DNA of 64,000 nucleotides from Escherichia coli (GTDB lineage Bacteria; Pseudomonadota; Gammaproteobacteria; Enterobacterales; Enterobacteriaceae), in assembly GCF_003334355.1 (NCBI RefSeq), contig NZ_QOWP01000016.1; one strand, written 5' to 3'. Of the stretch, positions 1 through 19,872 are shown one piece after another (positions within the stretch are counted from its first letter, which is position 1; each line of letters starts with the position of its first letter). Made by a program: the position numbers and the translations under genes. Under the pieces are notes generated by a model. That model was not told where the DNA came from, ran no database searches, and worked only from the letters and a program-made list of their open reading frames with translations.

Positions 1-250
1 AAGGCATTTCTATCGACAGAGTGAATTATTAATTCCCGATGTACTGGCGAATGTTAATTTTTCCCAGGCTGATGAGGTCATAGCTGATTTACGAGACAAA
101 CTTCATCAATTGTGTGAAATGTTATTTAATCAATCTGTAGCGCCCTATGCACATCATCCTAAATTAATAAGCACATTAGCGCTCGCCCGCGCCACGCTAT
201 ACAAACATTTACGGGAGTTAAAACCGCAAGGAGGGCCATCAAATGGCTGA
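1..250 (+). CDS. casA: Cse1/CasA (type I-E Cascade large subunit), C-terminal fragment truncated by window start
   Basis: Frame from base 2 is open with no stops to TGA at 248-250, ending ...KPQGGPSNG; stop overlaps casB start; position immediately upstream of casB as in the E. coli I-E operon. Confidence 0.75.
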   Translation, partial: RHFYRQSELLIPDVLANVNFSQADEVIADLRDKLHQLCEMLFNQSVAPYAHHPKLISTLALARATLYKHLRELKPQGGPSNG

Positions 251-725
251 TGAAATTGATGCAATGGCTTTATATCGAGCCTGGCAACAACTGGATAACG
301 GAGCATGTGCGCAAATTAGACGTGTTTCAGAACCTGATGAATTACGCGATATCCCTGCGTTTTATAGGCTGGTGCAACCTTTTGGTTGGGAAAACCCACG
401 TCACCAGCAGGCTCTTTTACGCATGGTGTTTTGCCTGAGCGCAGGAAAGAATGTCATCCGACATCAGGACAAAAAACCGGAGCAAACAACAGGTATCTCG
501 TTGGGAAGAGCTTTAGCCAATAGTGGAAGAATTAACGAGCGCCGTATCTTTCAATTAATTCGGGCTGACAGAACAGCCGATATGGTCCAGTTACGTCGAT
601 TGCTTGCTCACGCCGAACCCGTACTTGACTGGCCATTAATGGCCAGGATGTTGACCTGGTGGGGAAAGCGCGAACGCCAGCAACTTCTGGAAGATTTTGT
701 ATTGACCACAAACAAAAATGCGTAA
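243..725 (+). CDS. casB: Cse2/CasB, Cascade small subunit (160 aa)
   Basis: ORF 243..725, 160 aa, translation matches my recollection of E. coli CasB; operon context. Confidence 0.93.
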   Translation: MADEIDAMALYRAWQQLDNGACAQIRRVSEPDELRDIPAFYRLVQPFGWENPRHQQALLRMVFCLSAGKNVIRHQDKKPEQTTGISLGRALANSGRINERRIFQLIRADRTADMVQLRRLLAHAEPVLDWPLMARMLTWWGKRERQQLLEDFVLTTNKNA

Positions 726-737
726 GGAAACCTTTCT

Positions 738-1829
738 ATGTCTAACTTTATCAATATTCATGTTCTGATCTCTCACAGCCCTTCATGTCTGAACCGCGAC
801 GATATGAACATGCAGAAAGACGCTATTTTCGGCGGGAAAAGACGAGTAAGAATTTCAAGTCAAAGCCTTAAACGTGCGATGCGTAAAAGTGATTATTACG
901 CACAAAATATTGGTGAATCCAGTCTCAGAACAATTCATCTTGCACAATTACGTGATGTTCTTCGGCAAAAACTTAGTGAACGTTTTGACCAAAAAATCAT
1001 CGATAAGACATTAGCGCTGCTCTCCGGTAAATCAGTTGATGAAGCCGAAAAGATTTCTGCCGATGCGGTTACTCCCTGGGTTGTGGGGGAAATAGCCTGG
1101 TTCTGTGAGCAGGTTGCAAAAGCAGAGGCTGATAATCTGGATGATAAAAAGCTGCTCAAAGTTCTTAAGGAAGATATTGCCGCCATACGTGTGAATTTAC
1201 AGCAGGGTGTTGATATTGCGCTTAGTGGAAGAATGGCAACCAGCGGCATGATGAGTGAGTTGGGAAAAGTTGATGGTGCAATGTCTATTGCGCACGCGAT
1301 CACTACCCATCAGGTTGATTCTGATATTGACTGGTTCACCGCCGTAGATGATTTACAGGAACAAGGTTCTGCACATCTGGGAACACAGGAATTTTCATCG
1401 GGTGTTTTTTATCGTTATGCCAATATTAACCTCGCTCAACTTCAGGAAAATTTAGGCGGTGCCTCCAGGGAGCAGGCTCTGGAAATTGCAACCCATGTTG
1501 TTCATATGCTGGCAACAGAGGTCCCTGGAGCAAAACAGCGTACTTATGCCGCTTTTAACCCTGCGGATATGGTAATGGTTAATTTCTCCGATATGCCACT
1601 TTCTATGGCAAATGCTTTTGAAAAAGCGGTGAAAGCGAACGATGGCTTTTTGCAACCGTCTTTACAGGCGTTTAATCAATATTGGGATCGCGTTGCCAAT
1701 GGATATGGTCTGAACGGAGCCGCTGCGCAATTCAGCTTGTCTGATGTAGACCCTATTACTGGCCAGGTACAGCAAATGCCTACTTTAGAACAGTTAAAGT
1801 CCTGGGTTCGTAATAATGGCGAGGCGTGA
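738..1829 (+). CDS. casC: Cas7e/CasC, Cascade backbone subunit (363 aa)
   Basis: ORF 738..1829, 363 aa; operon position between casB and casD. Confidence 0.94.
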
Positions 1830-1831
1830 AC

Positions 1832-2506
1832 ATGAGATCTTATTTGATCTTGCGACTTGCTGGGCCAATGCAAGCCTGGGGGCAGCCGACCTTTGAAGGA
1901 ACGCGACCTACCGGAAGATTTCCGACCCGAAGCGGGTTATTAGGGCTACTCGGGGCTTGTCTTGGGATCCAACGTGATGATACTTCTTCATTACAGGCGT
2001 TATCAGAGAGTGTGCAATTTGCAGTGCGCTGCGATGAACTCATTCTTGACGATCGTCGTGTGTCTGTAACGGGGTTGCGTGATTACCATACAGTCCTTGG
2101 AGCGCGAGAAGATTACCGTGGTTTGAAAAGTCATGAAACGATTCAAACATGGCGCGAATATTTATGTGATGCCTCCTTTACCGTCGCTCTCTGGTTAACA
2201 CCACAGGCAACGATGGTTATGTCAGAACTTGAAAAAGCAGTATTAAAGCCTCGGTATACACCGTATCTGGGGCGGAGGAGTTGTCCGCTAACACAACCGC
2301 TTTTTCTCGGGACATGTCAGGCATCGGATCCTCAGAAGGTGCTATTAAATTATGAGCCCGTTGGCGGCGATATTTATAGTGAGGAATCAGTTGACGGGCA
2401 TCATTTAAAATTTACGGTGCGCGACGAACCGATGATCACCTTGCCTCGACAATTTGCTTCCCGAGAATGGTATGTGATTAAAGGAGGTATGGATGTATCT
2501 CAGTAA
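1832..2506 (+). CDS. casD: Cas5e/CasD (224 aa)
   Basis: ORF track begins at GTG 1826; ATG at 1832 gives MRSYLILRLAG..., the N-terminus I recall for CasD; casC stop at 1827-1829. Confidence 0.9.
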   Translation: MRSYLILRLAGPMQAWGQPTFEGTRPTGRFPTRSGLLGLLGACLGIQRDDTSSLQALSESVQFAVRCDELILDDRRVSVTGLRDYHTVLGAREDYRGLKSHETIQTWREYLCDASFTVALWLTPQATMVMSELEKAVLKPRYTPYLGRRSCPLTQPLFLGTCQASDPQKVLLNYEPVGGDIYSEESVDGHHLKFTVRDEPMITLPRQFASREWYVIKGGMDVSQ

Positions 2507-3092
2507 AGTCATCATTGCCAGGGCCTGGAGCAGGGATCTTTACCAACTTCACCAGGGATTATGGCATTTATTTCCAAACAGACCGGATGCTGCTCGTGAT
2601 TTTCTTTTTCATGTTGAGAAGCGAAACACACCAGAAGGCTGTCATGTTTTATTGCAGTCAGCGCAAATGCCTGTTTCAACTGCCGTTGCGACAGTCATTA
2701 AAACTAAACAGGTTGAATTTCAACTTCAGGTTGGTGTTCCACTCTATTTTCGGCTTCGGGCAAATCCGATAAAAACTATTCTCGACAATCAAAAACGCCT
2801 GGACAGTAAAGGGAATATAAAACGCTGTCGGGTTCCGTTAATAAAAGAAGCAGAACAAATCGCGTGGTTGCAGCGTAAATTGGGCAATGCCGCGCGCGTT
2901 GAAGATGTGCATCCCATATCGGAACGACCACAGTATTTTTCTGGTGATGGTAAAAGTGGAAAGATCCAAACGGTTTGCTTTGAAGGGGTGATCACCATCA
3001 ACGACGCGCCAGCGTTAATAGATCTTGTACAGCAAGGTATTGGGCCAGCCAAATCGATGGGATGTGGCTTGCTATCCCTGGCTCCACTGTGA
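2493..3092 (+). CDS. casE: Cas6e/CasE, pre-crRNA endoribonuclease (199 aa)
   Basis: ORF 2493..3092, 199 aa, overlaps casD end by 14 nt. Confidence 0.94.
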   Translation: MYLSKVIIARAWSRDLYQLHQGLWHLFPNRPDAARDFLFHVEKRNTPEGCHVLLQSAQMPVSTAVATVIKTKQVEFQLQVGVPLYFRLRANPIKTILDNQKRLDSKGNIKRCRVPLIKEAEQIAWLQRKLGNAARVEDVHPISERPQYFSGDGKSGKIQTVCFEGVITINDAPALIDLVQQGIGPAKSMGCGLLSLAPL

Positions 3093-3107
3093 TTAAGGTG
3101 TAATAAA

Positions 3108-4311
<1,204 letters not shown>

Positions 4312-4416
4312 AAACAAAGAATTAGCTGATCTTTAATAATAAGGAAATGTTACATTAAGGTTGGTGGGTTGTTTTTATGGGAAAAAATGCTTTAAGAACA
4401 AATGTATACTTTTAGA
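4312..4416 (+). promoter_or_regulatory. CRISPR leader (AT-rich, between cas2 stop and first repeat)
   Basis: About 105 bp AT-rich sequence directly abutting the first repeat on the cas2 side; type I-E leaders are known to carry the array promoter and integration signals. Confidence 0.7.
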
Positions 4417-4567
4417 GAGTTCCCCGCGTCAGCGGGGATAAACCGCCAAAGCAAAAGAAGTCGTCGATAATATGCGTGAGTTCCCCGCGTCAGCGGGGAT
4501 AAACCGGGCGCACTGGATGCGATGATGGATATCACTTAGAATTCCCCGCCCCTGCGGTAGAACACCC
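4417..4567 (+). CRISPR. Type I-E CRISPR array: 3 repeats (29 bp) and 2 spacers (32 bp); third repeat degenerate
   Basis: Repeat GAGTTCCCCGCGTCAGCGGGGATAAACCG at 4417-4445 and 4478-4506; spacers at 4446-4477 and 4507-4538; degenerate terminal repeat GAATTCCCCGCCCCTGCGGTAGAACACCC at 4539-4567. Confidence 0.92.
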
Positions 4568-4587
4568 AGCTCCCATTTTCAAACCCA

Positions 4588-5625
4588 TCAAGACGCCTTC
4601 GCCAACTCCTTCACCAGAGGTAGCATTATCCGCATAACGTCACGGCAGCGACGTTCTATTCTTCCAGGAAGTGCCTTATCAATATGCTGTTGATTATCCA
4701 GTCTTACGTCATGCCAGCTATTTCCCGCAGGGAATGCGGCTGTTTTTGCGCGTTGCTGATAACCATCCTTATTCCCAAGATTCCAGTTAGTCGCTTCCAC
4801 CGAAAGTACAGCAATGCCCGCTTTGTCGAATATTTCTGCGTCATTACAACACCCAGTGCCTTTCGGATAATTTTTATTCAAACCCGGATTGGTCGTTGCG
4901 GCTATTCCGTGACTGCGTGCAATTGCCAGCGCCCTGTCGCGCGTTAATTTCCTTACTGCTTCAGGGGTTTTTACACCGCTGTTGAAATACAATTTATCGC
5001 CAACAATTAAGTTATCGAGATTAATCACCAGCAGCGTATTTTTCTTTTCGGTGTCACTCATCCGCTTGAGTAAATTCTCAGCGCCTAATTTCCCTTCCTC
5101 TTCGCCGCTGGTCGCCACAAATCGAATACCATACTCGGTAGGCGTATTTTTCAGGCGTTCTGCCAATTCCAGCATGACACCTAAACCTGCGGCGTTATCA
5201 TCCATTCCTTGTAACGTCAGCCCGCCGAGATTGGCATCGGCGTCAGCATCGCTCAGCGGGGCGTAAGTATCCAGATGCGCCATAATGATGATCTGCTGCG
5301 GCGCTTTGCCTTCATGAGCGGCAATCACCGTACTTCCCGTCACGTTATGCCAGCTCTTACGATTATCGCGGGCGGTATAAATATACCGACTATTAAATGT
5401 CCGAATATCACTGCGATAACCCATTTGCTGAAACTGTTGGCGAATATAATCGGCAGATAACATTTCTGCAGGAGTTCCGGTCATGCGTCCCGGAAAGAAA
5501 GTAGCAATATGTCGTGCCTGAGTATTAGCAAAATCGCCAGGTTTAGGTGACGAGGCGTGTACGGGGAGAATAAAGCATACGCCGAGCGCCAGGGCAGCGG
5601 TACGGTGGCGCAATGCGGAAAACAT
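4588..5625 (-). CDS. iap: Alkaline phosphatase isozyme conversion aminopeptidase (345 aa)
   Basis: ORF 345 aa with N-terminal signal peptide; position between CRISPR array and cysD as in E. coli. Confidence 0.9.
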   Translation of the reverse strand: MFSALRHRTAALALGVCFILPVHASSPKPGDFANTQARHIATFFPGRMTGTPAEMLSADYIRQQFQQMGYRSDIRTFNSRYIYTARDNRKSWHNVTGSTVIAAHEGKAPQQIIIMAHLDTYAPLSDADADANLGGLTLQGMDDNAAGLGVMLELAERLKNTPTEYGIRFVATSGEEEGKLGAENLLKRMSDTEKKNTLLVINLDNLIVGDKLYFNSGVKTPEAVRKLTRDRALAIARSHGIAATTNPGLNKNYPKGTGCCNDAEIFDKAGIAVLSVEATNWNLGNKDGYQQRAKTAAFPAGNSWHDVRLDNQQHIDKALPGRIERRCRDVMRIMLPLVKELAKAS

Positions 5626-5876
5626 AGTGAGTCCTTAAATACCATGCAAATTTTTTTACCGCCATAGTATGAAACTGCCGCTGCGCTAAAACAATTTCAA
5701 ATCTTCCTAAACGCCCGAAATCCGGTGCCTTAAGCACTTTTTGATATTAGCTTTGCCAAATCGTTATTCCGTTAAGGAACTACTCATTCTAATTGGTAAT
5801 TTCATTCGTTCTCTTACGCTCCCTATAGTCGAAACATCTGATGGCAAGAAAATAGCGGTATTGCAAAGGAACGGTT

Positions 5877-6785
5877 ATGGATCAAATACGACTTACTCAC
5901 CTGCGGCAACTGGAGGCGGAAAGCATCCACATTATTCGCGAGGTGGCGGCAGAATTCTCAAATCCGGTGATGCTCTACTCTATCGGTAAAGATTCCAGCG
6001 TCATGCTGCATCTGGCGCGCAAGGCGTTTTATCCAGGTACGCTGCCTTTCCCGTTGCTGCATGTCGATACCGGCTGGAAATTCCGCGAGATGTATGAGTT
6101 CCGCGATCGTACTGCTAAAGCCTACGGCTGCGAACTGCTGGTGCATAAAAACCCGGAAGGCGTGGCGATGGGGATTAATCCATTCGTGCACGGCAGCGCG
6201 AAACATACCGATATTATGAAAACTGAAGGCCTAAAACAGGCGCTGAACAAATACGGTTTTGATGCCGCCTTCGGTGGTGCGCGCCGTGACGAAGAGAAAT
6301 CCCGCGCTAAAGAGCGAATTTACTCTTTCCGTGACCGCTTCCATCGCTGGGATCCGAAAAATCAGCGCCCGGAGCTGTGGCACAACTACAACGGGCAAAT
6401 TAACAAAGGCGAAAGCATCCGCGTCTTCCCGCTCTCTAACTGGACCGAGCAGGATATCTGGCAATACATCTGGCTGGAAAATATCGACATTGTTCCGCTA
6501 TATCTCGCTGCGGAACGTCCGGTTCTGGAACGCGACGGTATGTTGATGATGATTGATGACAACCGTATCGACCTGCAACCGGGCGAAGTGATTAAAAAAC
6601 GGATGGTGCGTTTCCGTACGCTGGGCTGCTGGCCGCTGACCGGTGCGGTGGAGTCAAATGCACAAACACTGCCGGAAATCATCGAAGAGATGCTGGTTTC
6701 CACCACCAGTGAACGTCAGGGCCGCGTGATTGACCGCGACCAGGCGGGGTCTATGGAGCTGAAAAAACGTCAGGGGTATTTTTAA
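5877..6785 (+). CDS. cysD: Sulfate adenylyltransferase subunit 2 (302 aa)
   Basis: ORF 302 aa; cysDNC operon order. Confidence 0.95.
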
Positions 6786-13452: not shown

Positions 13453-14592
13453 ATGAGCGCGGGAAGCCCAAAATTCACCGTTCGCCGCATTGCGGCTTTG
13501 TCACTGGTTTCGCTATGGCTGGCAGGCTGTTCTGACACTTCAAATCCACCGGCACCGGTCAGCTCCGTTAATGGCAATGCACCTGCAAATACCAATTCTG
13601 GTATGTTGATTACGCCGCCGCCGAAAATGGGGACGACATCTACAGCGCAGCAACCGCAAATTCAGCCGGTGCAGCAGCCACAAATTCAGGCTACTCAACA
13701 ACCGCAAATCCAGCCAGTGCAGCCAGTAGCTCAGCAGCCGGTACAGATGGAAAACGGACGCATCGTCTATAACCGTCAGTATGGGAACATTCCGAAAGGC
13801 AGTTATAGCGGCAGTACCTATACCGTGAAAAAAGGCGACACACTTTTCTATATCGCCTGGATTACTGGCAACGATTTCCGTGACCTTGCTCAGCGCAACA
13901 ATATTCAGGCACCATACGCGCTGAACGTTGGTCAGACTTTGCAGGTGGGTAATGCTTCCGGTACGCCAATCACTGGCGGAAATGCCATTACCCAGGCCGA
14001 CGCAGCAGAGCAAGGAGTTGTGATCAAGCCTGCACAAAATTCCACCGTTGCTGTTGCGTCGCAACCGACAATTACGTATTCTGAGTCTTCGGGTGAACAG
14101 AGTGCTAACAAAATGTTGCCGAACAACAAGCCAACTGCGACCACGGTCACAGCGCCTGTAACGGTACCAACAGCAAGCACAACCGAGCCGACTGTCAGCA
14201 GTACATCAACCAGTACGCCTATCTCCACCTGGCGCTGGCCGACTGAGGGCAAAGTGATCGAAACCTTTGGCGCTTCTGAGGGGGGCAACAAGGGGATTGA
14301 TATCGCAGGCAGCAAAGGACAGGCAATTATCGCGACCGCAGATGGCCGCGTTGTTTATGCTGGTAACGCGCTGCGCGGCTACGGTAATCTGATTATCATC
14401 AAACATAATGATGATTACCTGAGTGCCTACGCCCATAACGACACAATGCTGGTCCGGGAACAACAAGAAGTTAAGGCGGGGCAAAAAATAGCGACCATGG
14501 GTAGCACCGGAACCAGTTCAACACGCTTGCATTTTGAAATTCGTTACAAGGGGAAATCCGTAAACCCGCTGCGTTATTTGCCGCAGCGATAA
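13453..14592 (+). CDS. nlpD: Lipoprotein NlpD, LysM plus M23 peptidase-like domain (379 aa)
   Basis: ORF 379 aa, lipobox LAGCS, Gln/Pro-rich repeat linker, C-terminal M23-like region; the rpoS promoter is known to lie inside this gene. Confidence 0.93.
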
Positions 14593-14654
14593 ATCGGCGG
14601 AACCAGGCTTTTGCTTGAATGTTCCGTCAAGGGATCACGGGTAGGAGCCACCTT

Positions 14655-15647
14655 ATGAGTCAGAATACGCTGAAAGTTCATGATTTAAATGAAGATGCGG
14701 AATTTGATGAGAACGGAGTTGAGGTTTTTGACGAAAAGGCCTTAGTAGAAGAGGAACCCAGTGATAACGATTTGGCCGAAGAGGAACTGTTATCGCAGGG
14801 AGCCACACAGCGTGTGTTGGACGCGACTCAGCTTTACCTTGGTGAGATTGGTTATTCACCACTGTTAACGGCCGAAGAAGAAGTTTATTTTGCGCGTCGC
14901 GCACTGCGTGGAGATGTCGCCTCTCGCCGCCGGATGATCGAGAGTAACTTGCGTCTGGTGGTAAAAATTGCCCGCCGTTATGGCAATCGTGGTCTGGCGT
15001 TGCTGGACCTTATCGAAGAGGGCAACCTGGGGCTGATCCGCGCGGTAGAGAAGTTTGACCCGGAACGTGGTTTCCGCTTCTCAACATACGCAACCTGGTG
15101 GATTCGCCAGACGATTGAACGGGCGATTATGAACCAAACCCGTACTATTCGTTTGCCGATTCACATCGTAAAGGAGCTGAACGTTTACCTGCGAACCGCA
15201 CGTGAGTTGTCCCATAAGCTGGACCATGAACCAAGTGCGGAAGAGATCGCAGAGCAACTGGATAAGCCAGTTGATGACGTCAGCCGTATGCTTCGTCTTA
15301 ACGAGCGCATTACCTCGGTAGACACCCCGCTGGGTGGTGATTCCGAAAAAGCGTTGCTGGACATCCTGGCCGATGAAAAAGAGAACGGTCCGGAAGATAC
15401 CACGCAAGATGACGATATGAAGCAGAGCATCGTCAAATGGCTGTTCGAGCTGAACGCCAAACAGCGTGAAGTGCTGGCACGTCGATTCGGTTTGCTGGGG
15501 TACGAAGCGGCAACACTGGAAGATGTAGGTCGTGAAATTGGCCTCACCCGTGAACGTGTTCGCCAGATTCAGGTTGAAGGCCTGCGCCGTTTGCGCGAAA
15601 TCCTGCAAACGCAGGGGCTGAATATCGAAGCGCTGTTCCGCGAGTAA
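14655..15647 (+). CDS. rpoS: RNA polymerase sigma factor RpoS (sigma-38, 330 aa)
   Basis: ORF track starts 14619; ATG at 14655 gives [17 protein letters not shown]..., 330 aa. Confidence 0.95.
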
Positions 15648-15663
15648 GTAAGCATCTGTCAGA

Positions 15664-15694
15664 AAGGCCAGTCTCAAGCGAGGCTGGCCTTTTC
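15664..15694 (+). terminator. Intrinsic terminator downstream of rpoS
   Basis: GC-rich hairpin AGGCCAG...CTGGCCT followed by TTTTCT. Confidence 0.75.
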
Positions 15695-15704
15695 TGTGCA
15701 CAAT

Positions 15705-15734
15705 AAAAGGTCCGATGCCCATCGGACCTTTTTA
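15705..15734 (-). terminator. Intrinsic terminator for ygbN (also terminator-like on the plus strand)
   Basis: Hairpin GGTCCGATG...CATCGGACC flanked by A-run upstream and T-run downstream on the plus strand. Confidence 0.7.
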
Positions 15735-15740
15735 TTAAGG

Positions 15741-17105
15741 TCAAATTACCGCCCATACGCACCAGGTAATTAAGAATCCGGTAAAACCGAGAATGGTCGT
15801 TAACACTGTCCAGGTTTTCAGACCGTCTGCTACCGACAACCCCAGATATTTGGTCACAATCCAGAACCCTGAGTCATTAATATGTGACGCACCAAGCCCA
15901 CCAAAGCAGGCTGCCAGCGTCACCAATACGCACTGAATCGGATTCAATCCCATCACCGCTTCTGAGAGTAACCCGCCGGTTGTCAGTATTGCTACGGTTG
16001 CTGACCCCTGCGATGCACGCAGCGCCAGTGAAATAATAAATGCGGCTGGTAACAGAGGCAGGTCAATCATTTGTAGCATGTTGGCAAGGGCTTTGCCGAC
16101 GCCCGATTCCACCAGCACTTTGCCAAATACCCCTCCAGCACCAGTAACCAAAATCACTACCGCCGCAGTAGGAAGCGCTGAGCCCATAATGTCGCTGGTG
16201 TGTTGTAAGCTCCAGCCGCGACGTAAAGCCAATAACCAGAATGCCAGCACCAGCGCAATCATTAGAGCTACCATTGGTGAGCCGATCAGCTGTAGCGTAC
16301 CAAGCAGGGGATGCGAAGGCGGCATCAGTGTTGCGGAAACCGTACCCGCCATGATAATCGCGATAGGAATAACAATTAGCGAGGTGACCAGCGCGACGCC
16401 CGGTGGATTTATTTTATCGCTTAATTTTGTCGCGCCTTCCTCACTGGCCGGAGCCAGTTGCATCTGTTCCAGTACTTCTACTGACATCGCATATTGGCGC
16501 TTATTGATTATTTTCGCTGCAAAGTAGCCAACAACCCCTACGGGAATAGAAATCGCAATACCGATGATGGTTAGCCAGCCGATGTCTGCGTGGAGTAACC
16601 CCGCTGCGGCGACAGGGCCTGGATGCGGCGGTACCGCCACGTGAACAGTGAGCATGATCCCAGCGACAGGCAGGCCAAATTTGAGTGGCGATATTTTGGC
16701 AACCTTGGCAAAACCGTAAATGATTGGCGCAAGAATAATAAAGCCGACATCAAAGAAGACGGGAATACCGAGGAAGAACGCTGCCAGAGTCAGCGCAGCG
16801 ATAGTTCGTTTGTCACCTAACTTGCGACTGAAATAATTAGCCAGTGACTCTGCACCACCAGAGTGTTCGATCATACGCCCCAGCATAGCGCCCAGACCAA
16901 TAATAATAGTGACGGAACCAAGCACACCGCCCATCCCGGCGATCATCACTTTACCCACTTCGCCCGCCGGTATACCTGCCGCAAGTGCGACTAACAGGCT
17001 GACGAGGAGCAAAGCAACGAATGGTTGTACCTTTGCCTTGATGACCAGCAGCAACAGCATGATTACGCCAGCTAACGCAATGCATAACAATGTAATTGTG
17101 GACAT
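15741..17105 (-). CDS. ygbN: GntP-family permease, putative threonate/tetronate transporter (454 aa)
   Basis: ORF 454 aa, highly hydrophobic multi-TM; cluster context. Confidence 0.9.
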   Translation of the reverse strand: MSTITLLCIALAGVIMLLLLVIKAKVQPFVALLLVSLLVALAAGIPAGEVGKVMIAGMGGVLGSVTIIIGLGAMLGRMIEHSGGAESLANYFSRKLGDKRTIAALTLAAFFLGIPVFFDVGFIILAPIIYGFAKVAKISPLKFGLPVAGIMLTVHVAVPPHPGPVAAAGLLHADIGWLTIIGIAISIPVGVVGYFAAKIINKRQYAMSVEVLEQMQLAPASEEGATKLSDKINPPGVALVTSLIVIPIAIIMAGTVSATLMPPSHPLLGTLQLIGSPMVALMIALVLAFWLLALRRGWSLQHTSDIMGSALPTAAVVILVTGAGGVFGKVLVESGVGKALANMLQMIDLPLLPAAFIISLALRASQGSATVAILTTGGLLSEAVMGLNPIQCVLVTLAACFGGLGASHINDSGFWIVTKYLGLSVADGLKTWTVLTTILGFTGFLITWCVWAVI

Positions 17106-17193
17106 GGGAAACCCTGTCTGAAAGTTATAGTTAACCTACCCCATCCGTAGATGGGGGGATGTATGGGTACGTTGTAATTAGGGATTTAACGAA

Positions 17194-17970
17194 TTAGCGC
17201 CAGGCGTCAAACCAGCCAAGCCCTTCTTCGGTGAGGCCACGAGGTTTATATTCACAACCGATCCAGCCCTGATATCCCACCTCATCGAACAGGCGGAACA
17301 GCCACGGATAGTTGATTTCTCCATCGTCCGGTTCATGTCGATCAGGTAGTCCGGCAATTTGTACGTGCGCATATTTCCCGGCGTAGTCGCGGATTAAATG
17401 CGTCAGGTTGCCATCTACTTTTTGCGCATGAAAAGTATCTAGTTGAATAAACACGTTATCTCGCGCAACCTCTTCAACAATAGCCAGTGCCTGATACTGG
17501 CTGGAGAAGAGATAATGAGGCTTAACGCCGGGGCTGAGTGCTTCAACTAATATTCGCTTGCCGTGTGGCGCAAAGCGGTCGGCAGCGTAGCGGATATTAT
17601 CGATAAATACTGCCCGGTACCGTTCAGCATCTTCGCCAGCGGGCACGACGCCTGCCATCACATGGACTTGTTCACAATTGAGCGCCAATGCATATTCCAG
17701 TGCCAGGTCGATGTCTGCGTGTGCTTCGTGCTCACGTCCGGGAAGGGCGGATAATCCCCATTCCCCCGCATTAATATCTCCGGGAGCGGTATTGAACAGC
17801 GCCAGTGTCAGATGGTTTTGCTCCAGTTGCTTTTGGATTTGCAGGGTGGAGTAGTTATAGGGAAACAGAAATTCCACAGCATCGAACCCGGCTTTTCGCG
17901 CTGCGGCGAAGCGTTCAATAAAAGGCACTTCGGTGAACATCATGGATAAATTAGCTGCAAAACGAGGCAT
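17194..17970 (-). CDS. otnI: 2-oxo-tetronate isomerase, hydroxypyruvate isomerase family (258 aa)
   Basis: ORF 258 aa; ygbM position in cluster. Confidence 0.88.
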
Positions 17971-17974
17971 TGCA

Positions 17975-18613
17975 TTAACTCCTTAATTCCGCAATTTCAC
18001 CTGCGGTCAGATAACGGATCGGGCGGTCACCGAGAATAAAAATCAGCTTTGCCGTTTCCTCCAGCTCTTCCATATTGTTGGCGGCTTCTTGCAGGCTTTC
18101 ACCGCAAACCACTGGGCCATGATTTGCCAGTAAAAAAGCCTGATTGTCTGCTGCCAGTTCCGCCAGATCCTGTGCGATGCGTTTATCGCCCGGTCGGTAA
18201 TAAGGCACCAGCGGGACATTTCCCATCCGCATCACCACGTATGGTGTGAACGGACGAATAACGTTGCTGCTGTCCAGCCCTTGCAGGCAGGAAAGCGCCG
18301 TCGACCATGTGCTGTGCAAATGCACCACCGCTTTACAGCGCGGATTGTTGCGATACAGCGCCAGATGAAAGAGCACCTCTTTCGAGGGTTTGTCACCACT
18401 TAACCATTCGCCATCCGCGGCGACTTTGGAAAGCCGCTGCGGATCGAGATTGCCCAGGCATGAACCTGTCGGTGTCGCCAGTAAATTCCCGTCAGGTAAA
18501 AGCAGCGACAGATTGCCAGCCGAACCGGTTGCATAGCCGCGCTGAAAGAATGAACTGGCAATCCGCGTCATCTCCTCTCGCAAAGACTGCTCTACTTTTG
18601 CGAAATCGCTCAT
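17975..18613 (-). CDS. otnC: 3-oxo-tetronate 4-phosphate decarboxylase, class II aldolase/adducin fold (212 aa)
   Basis: ORF 212 aa; ygbL position. Confidence 0.88.
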
Positions 18614-19872
18614 GATAAAAACTCTCTTTGGGCTCGTGAAAAAAAGGCGTCATCACCGAAGTTGCCAGATTTAAGGGCGAGTGAGACAGGCTTATCCAGT
18701 GCGTTTACCCACGGCACGCCGGGGGAAATGGTTGGGCCAATATGAAACCCTTTTATTCCCAGGCTCTGTGTGACTACGCCGGAGGTCTCACCGCCTGCGA
18801 CAATAAAGCGTGTCACGCCTTCCGCTGCTAACCGCGCCGCTAGTTGAGAAAACAGTGTTTCTACTGCCTGACTGGCTTTTTGTGCACCGTATTGCTGTTG
18901 AATTGCTGCCAATGCGTCAGTGCTGGCGGTGGCAAAAACCAGTGGAGCAAGTACACTTTCCTGGCCCAGAACCCACTCTGCCAGTTCGTGTGCATAAGCG
19001 GCCAGAGTTTCAATTGAGAGGCAGCGTGCCACATCAACTTCACGGGCTGGTGCAATTTGACGGTAATGTGCTACCTGGCGGTTGGTCATTTGAGAGCATG
19101 AACCGGAGAGCACTACGCCGCGCCCAGCGAGCGGACGCCCTGCTTTGCGAGCCTGGTTACCGTTTTCTTGCGCCCACTGCCGGGCCAGGCCAATCGCCAG
19201 ACCAGAACCGCCCGTTACCAGTGGGGCATCGCGCAAGGCTTCTCCCTGAATTTCCAGATGGTGTTCGGTCAGCGCATCAAGCACCGCGTAGCGGTAGCCC
19301 TCTTGCTGTAAGCGAGCCAGCTCTTGACGAACGGCATCCACACCTTGTTCGAAAACATGTGCCGAAACGACGCCGCAGCGCCCTGTGGATTGCGCTTCAA
19401 CCAGACGGGGAAGATAGCTGTCGGTCATGGGATTTACCGGGTGATGGCGCATCCCGGATTCGGCCAGCAGTTGATTCATTACGAACAAATACCCCTGATA
19501 AACCGTACGTCCGTTGACCGGCAGGGCCGGAGAGAAGACCGTAAACGGCGTGTCGAGAGCATCCATTAAGGCATCGGTAACCGGGCCAATATTACCTTTC
19601 GCCGTACTGTCGAAAGTAGAGCAGTATTTGAAATAGATCTGTTTGCAACCTTGCTGTTGCAACCAGCTCAGAGCCGCCAGCGATTGCTGTGTGGCTTCAA
19701 CCACTGGACAGGAGCGCGTTTTCAGGCTGATCACCAGTGCGTCGATTGCTTCCGGCATTTTACCTGTTGGAACACCGTTAATTTGTACCGTTGGTAGACC
19801 GTTTTCCACCAGAAAACTGGCGATATCCGTCGCGCCGGTAAAATCATCGGCGATAACGCCAATCTTGATCAT
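18610..19872 (-). CDS. otnK: 3-oxo-tetronate kinase (420 aa as read from first ATG)
   Basis: ORF 420 aa starting MIKIGVIADDFTGATD; start overlaps ygbJ stop (ATGA); exact start not verified. Confidence 0.85.
   Translation of the reverse strand: MIKIGVIADDFTGATDIASFLVENGLPTVQINGVPTGKMPEAIDALVISLKTRSCPVVEATQQSLAALSWLQQQGCKQIYFKYCSTFDSTAKGNIGPVTDALMDALDTPFTVFSPALPVNGRTVYQGYLFVMNQLLAESGMRHHPVNPMTDSYLPRLVEAQSTGRCGVVSAHVFEQGVDAVRQELARLQQEGYRYAVLDALTEHHLEIQGEALRDAPLVTGGSGLAIGLARQWAQENGNQARKAGRPLAGRGVVLSGSCSQMTNRQVAHYRQIAPAREVDVARCLSIETLAAYAHELAEWVLGQESVLAPLVFATASTDALAAIQQQYGAQKASQAVETLFSQLAARLAAEGVTRFIVAGGETSGVVTQSLGIKGFHIGPTISPGVPWVNALDKPVSLALKSGNFGDDAFFSRAQREFLS

Follow-up and report, generated by a model that had tools for sequence, protein, structure and literature searches.

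Codon 33 of an intact Escherichia coli rpoS gene is GAG (Glu), the species-wide allele, and not the TAG or CAG of K-12

The DNA analysed in this study (the window) is a stretch of 64,000 nucleotides from E. coli, and the features that bear on its rpoS gene, which encodes sigma-S, are collected in Table 1. The rpoS frame of 993 nt runs from an ATG at 14655-14657 to a TAA at 15645-15647, and its translation gave 330 amino acids with no internal stop codons. The frame, which a sequence-only reading of this DNA had thought to be intact, is uninterrupted over its full length. A GGAG Shine-Dalgarno-like motif was seen ahead of the ATG on inspection of the sequence. In profile searches, the predicted protein scored well above the cutoffs of both RpoS models, with 604.6 bits against the NCBIfam equivalog NF004207 (cutoff 394) and 480.7 bits against the equivalog TIGR02394 (cutoff 378.7), the core of the latter model covering residues 48-328. 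The Pfam sigma-70 regions were present in order, namely region 1.2 (PF00140, residues 56-88), region 2 (PF04542, residues 94-163), region 3 (PF04539, residues 174-248) and region 4 (PF04545, residues 262-315). The gene was classed as rpoS on the combination of these equivalog scores, the order of the sigma-70 regions and the 330-aa frame in its nlpD-rpoS context.

Table 1. Position and basis of the features discussed in the text (coordinates are those of the window).
Feature	Position	Strand	Basis	Remarks
Type I-E CRISPR array	4417..4567	+		Between cas2 and iap; two full repeats, two spacers, degenerate terminal repeat
nlpD	13453..14592	+	ORF, MG1655 annotation	Immediately upstream of rpoS
rpoS (sigma-S) CDS	14655..15647	+	ORF and translation	330 codons plus TAA; intact
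rpoS codon 33	14751..14753	+	Sequence, translation, alignment	GAG (Glu), species-wide allele
Hairpin, then U-rich run	15657..15700	+	RNA fold	Directly 3' of the rpoS stop codon
otnK (ygbK, 3-oxo-tetronate kinase)	18610..19872	-		Intact 420-aa ORF, overlaps otnC

The main rpoS promoter sits within nlpD, producing a long leader, and no difference from the K-12 strain MG1655 was found in the mismatch map between position 13939 and the rpoS start codon. Within nlpD, an internal tandem repeat with a 24-nt unit (13646-13715; 2.9 copies, 71% matches) codes for a Gln/Pro-rich linker (QQPQIQ...), which is ordinary for NlpD. On the other side of the gene, the hairpin beyond the stop codon had a folding energy of -27.8 kcal/mol (z = -5.76), and none of 200 shuffled sequences folded as well. 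This hairpin, which was missed by a simple terminator scan, is probably the intrinsic terminator of rpoS. Nothing was returned for rpoS by a scan for consensus promoters and terminators, and an Rfam scan at the gathering cutoffs reported tRNAs only, with nothing on rpoS. A tRNA cluster at the end of the window (63562-64000) corresponds to the serV-argV-argY region of MG1655, and the window edge truncates its final tRNA. Two ORFs on the minus strand that overlap rpoS in antisense (14653-14904 and 15081-15722) have no support and were for this reason taken as mechanical.

Counted from the ATG at 14655, codon 33 of rpoS encodes Glu, and both the coordinates and the reading given for it by the sequence-only reading were exact. 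Residue 33 belongs to an acidic N-terminal segment that precedes region 1.2, and the TIGR02394 core does not reach it. With GAG at this codon, the gene belongs to the wild-type rpoS 33E allele class. When rpoS of the window was aligned with that of MG1655 (b2741, RPOS_ECOLI; NC_000913.3, 2866559-2867551), 992 of the 993 nucleotides and 329 of the 330 amino acids were the same. The sole difference was at nt 97, which is G in the window and C in MG1655, giving GAG (Glu33) in the former and CAG (Gln33) in the latter. BW2952, of the MC4100 lineage, also has CAG at codon 33 and no other difference in rpoS. The W3110 gene was likewise one base apart from that of the window, with T at nt 97 and hence the amber codon TAG, and in RefSeq it is marked as a pseudogene that contains an internal stop. 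The amber allele, rpoS396(Am), found in W3110, J53, HMS174, ER2796 and BLR(DE3), has the same haplotype as the window save for nt 97; unlike it, the window gene has no stop at this codon and encodes a full-length sigma-S. These comparisons agree with the earlier statement that K-12 lineages have TAG or CAG at codon 33, a statement that would have been undone by GAG in MG1655 itself; the window, with GAG, falls outside this K-12 pattern.

The polymorphism at codon 33 is well documented and was already known (Atlung et al. 2002; Subbarayan and Sarkar 2004; the rpoS396(Am) allele), and publications from about 1997-2004 onwards describe both it and its confinement to K-12 stocks. GAG has been described as common among natural non-K-12 isolates, with CAG in MG1655 (PMC2700278), and every isolate analysed in another study had GAG (PMC1852560). 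The rpoS396(Am) allele, TAG at codon 33, has been traced to the very early K-12 pedigree (PMC4444293). A passage of PMC2700278 that cites Atlung et al. (2002) and Subbarayan and Sarkar (2004) gives GAG or TAT for some K-12 stocks. The window gene does not differ from the 33E (GAG) allele described for natural isolates (Atlung et al. 2002; Subbarayan and Sarkar 2004; Dong et al. 2009, PMC2700278) and represents the same allele. At the DNA level, rpoS of the window was 100% identical to that of many human, animal and environmental isolates.

Allele frequencies were assessed with exact 61-mers centred on codon 33 in 5,426 complete E. coli genomes, of which 5,415 had a match; the counts are of exact matches, so that any nearby SNP drops a genome from the allele counts. 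The GAG 61-mer was present in 4,819 of these 5,415 genomes (89%), and GAG is for this reason the expected and not an unusual state. Among genomes sampled across the ranking, its carriers included O157:H7, O103, IAI39, E2348/69 and many human, animal and environmental isolates. An error of sequencing or assembly at base 14751 was considered extremely improbable, since the base as read yields the majority allele, exact in all 4,819 of these genomes, and is located outside any homopolymer run. The CAG 61-mer was exact in 173 genomes, and all 40 of those among the matches listed were MG1655 or other K-12 or laboratory derivatives. For TAG, exact in 121 genomes, the matches listed included W3110, J53, HMS174, NCM3722, S17-1, ER strains, O16:H48 mouse-colonisation isolates and BLR(DE3). 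Among the matches listed, the genomes with CAG or TAG were K-12 laboratory derivatives, plus BLR(DE3), a B strain whose recA-to-queE region, amber codon included, came from K-12 (PMC5454202). The remaining genomes (about 300) had another SNP near codon 33, as in E. coli C, which combines GAG with S36N. For practical purposes, GAG is a good discriminator between K-12 genomes and others.

The relationship of the whole window to K-12 was examined by alignment to MG1655, with which it is collinear (2882879-2818207) and shares the gene order nlpD-rpoS-ygbN-ygbM-ygbL-ygbK-ygbJ-ygbI-pphB-mutS. There were 205 mismatches over 59.5 kb (99.65% identity), and the cas region was 97.4% identical. The SNPs were dense at 1-6 kb (the cas genes, the CRISPR array and iap into cysD), 22-26, 28-30, 32-36 and 46-50 kb, and were almost absent elsewhere, including 6-12, 14-22, 40-46 and 50-64 kb. 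This mosaic pattern is typical of recombination. Positions 22000-46999 of the window were 100% identical to natural isolates (swine strain B2, STK39-3-E and EC529) and to E. coli C; around rpoS, swine strain B2 and E. coli C were only 99.3-99.7% identical to the window. For positions 1-6500, no 100% match was found among complete genomes, the best matches being 99.4-99.6% identical.

The CRISPR array also sets the window apart from MG1655. It holds two spacers, as against at least 11 parsed in MG1655, and the two arrays have only the trailer spacer in common (GGCGCACTGGATGCGATGATGGATATCACTT), which is also present in E. coli C. MG1655, swine strain B2 and E. coli C all lack the leader-proximal spacer (CCAAAGCAAAAGAAGTCGTCGATAATATGCGT). 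The CRISPR content had earlier been said to differ from that of K-12, and the short array, with a leader-proximal spacer missing from MG1655, bears this out. Near-identity to MG1655 that extends to the CRISPR spacer set, as would mark a K-12 genome, was not found in the window.

A further difference was found in otnK, where a run of G residues (18721-18725) has five G in the window and four in MG1655 and BW2952. This 1-bp deletion, near the 3' end of the gene, results in a truncated product of 388 aa and a gap of 92 nt before ygbL in the two K-12 strains. The window has neither the deletion nor the 388-aa product, and otnK is likewise intact and overlaps otnC in E. coli C and swine strain B2. 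A synthetic query combining GAG at codon 33 with the K-12 otnK-deletion haplotype gave nine exact one-piece matches, none of them labelled K-12, and every K-12-labelled genome among the matches listed was one mismatch off. The nine genomes were of animal, food, faecal or human origin, or their source was not given. The four-G run in these nine genomes may be real, which would make the marker less than strictly specific to K-12, or it may be an assembly error in the homopolymer.

Taken by itself, GAG at codon 33 is suggestive of a non-K-12 background and not decisive, because the 4.8 kb around rpoS (13939-18724) are K-12-like and because GAG is given for some K-12 stocks in the passage of PMC2700278 mentioned above. 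The window might on these two grounds derive from a K-12 laboratory strain with GAG, one in which the amber codon had truly reverted or one from an early GAG stock, as rpoS and this surrounding segment equal MG1655 apart from nt 97. Such an origin is very hard to reconcile with the 205 mismatches to MG1655 and the divergent cas region, the two-spacer array with its leader-proximal spacer foreign to MG1655, the otnK gene without the deletion of MG1655 and BW2952, and the complete identity of positions 22000-46999 to swine, poultry and human isolates. Moreover, the search for a K-12 genome with GAG returned no K-12-labelled exact match to the synthetic query, and BW2952 has CAG. A K-12 derivative is effectively refuted by the divergence; it is the flanking sequence, and not codon 33 by itself, that excludes K-12. 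The gene was accordingly read as ordinary wild-type rpoS from a natural E. coli outside K-12 whose rpoS locus is related to that of K-12, with a probability of about 97%, and nothing in the data spoke against this reading. The non-K-12, wild-type-like background put forward in the sequence-only reading was thus upheld by the mismatches, the CRISPR spacers, the intact otnK and the identity to natural isolates.

The state of codon 33 in related proteins and genomes was used to consider the origin of the K-12 alleles. In the protein collection, the E33 protein goes under the name 'MULTISPECIES: RpoS [Enterobacteriaceae]' and occurs on no fewer than 1,000 contigs, and the full RpoS of the window is identical to this sequence; RPOS_ECOLI is the Q33 protein. 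E33 also occurs in the E. albertii and Leclercia members of the same 90% cluster, and the residue aligned with it is Asp or Glu in Sodalis and Hafnia. The faecal isolate LD27-1 from China (NZ_CP047594.1; 9084-9784 and 19934-20926) has eight CRISPR spacers in common with MG1655 and GAG at rpoS codon 33. Its cas proteins from casA through cas2, cas3 excepted, are the same RefSeq proteins as those of K-12 BW2952, and its mutS, pphB and ltnD proteins are different ones. At this locus, LD27-1 looks like a close natural relative of K-12.

Because Glu is found in E. albertii and Leclercia, the E33 protein is widespread, LD27-1 has GAG and the 4.8-kb segment matches MG1655 everywhere except at rpoS nt 97 in the mismatch map, GAG is the ancestral state of the haplotype that K-12 carries, TAG and CAG having arisen in the K-12 laboratory lineage. 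GAG might instead have been recombined into a K-12-like haplotype from another lineage and not be ancestral there, and the mosaic divergence from MG1655, with SNP clusters between near-identical stretches, does imply that recombination shaped this region. A point mutation in the K-12 lineage is, however, far more parsimonious than a tract that alters one base in an otherwise identical 4.8 kb, and GAG is present in 89% of genomes, in the outgroups and in LD27-1 with its K-12-like CRISPR array. Recombination of GAG into the haplotype was on balance regarded as most unlikely.

From GAG as the ancestral codon, the K-12 laboratory lineage changed at nt 97, where a change of G to T gave the amber allele rpoS396(Am), still carried by W3110, J53, HMS174 and others. 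The lineages of MG1655 and MC4100 have C at nt 97 and hence Gln33, and the sequenced strain was untouched by any of this. We infer the order GAG to TAG to CAG from the literature and from parsimony; a direct change of GAG to CAG would likewise be a single step. A more tentative possibility, which we consider rather doubtful, is that the source strain and others such as LD27-1 preserve the exact pre-laboratory haplotype behind rpoS396(Am) of K-12; the identity of the 4.8 kb bar nt 97 is the basis for this suggestion. If this were true, the source strain would serve as a natural reference in rebuilding what K-12 originally had at rpoS and perhaps also at otnK.

The three codons are predicted to differ in their consequences for sigma-S. 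With GAG, translation from the annotated AUG would give full-length sigma-S, and with CAG, reading would be restored with Gln at residue 33. With TAG, translation would stop at codon 33, and sigma-S activity would be reduced or reliant on suppression or internal re-initiation (PMC5454202; PMC4444293). The amber allele has been reported to lower sigma-S activity (PMC5454202), and the product of this allele has been annotated from an internal start (PMC4444293). Among the solved structures of RNA polymerase with sigma-S, E33 is present in 5ipl and 18 related entries, and Q33 in 6kj6. The RpoS of the window is identical to the E33 construct of the solved holoenzyme structures (5ipl and related entries). 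Given this identity and the 329 of 330 residues shared with K-12 RpoS, the protein is likely to be active; any regulatory defects elsewhere, for instance in rssB or crl, would fall outside the window. A subtle difference between E33 and Q33 in sigma-S activity or regulation is a possibility.

As the strain encodes a full-length canonical sigma-S, the caveats that attach to K-12, namely a reduced or altered general stress response due to the amber codon or to Q33, do not apply to it, and the result as a whole assigns the window to a natural isolate and not to a K-12 laboratory strain. Beyond correct annotation the significance is small, as the gene is well studied, its allele here is the usual one held by the majority, and the K-12 peculiarity at this codon is textbook-level knowledge in the field. 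Disrupted rpoS genes, in contrast to the intact gene of the window, were seen in several related genomes. In E. coli C (NZ_CP020543.1, 14665-15646), rpoS, which carries S36N, is annotated as frameshifted, and CAVP879 and CAVP880 (NZ_CM176324.1 and NZ_CM176323.1) have an IS1 insertion within rpoS.
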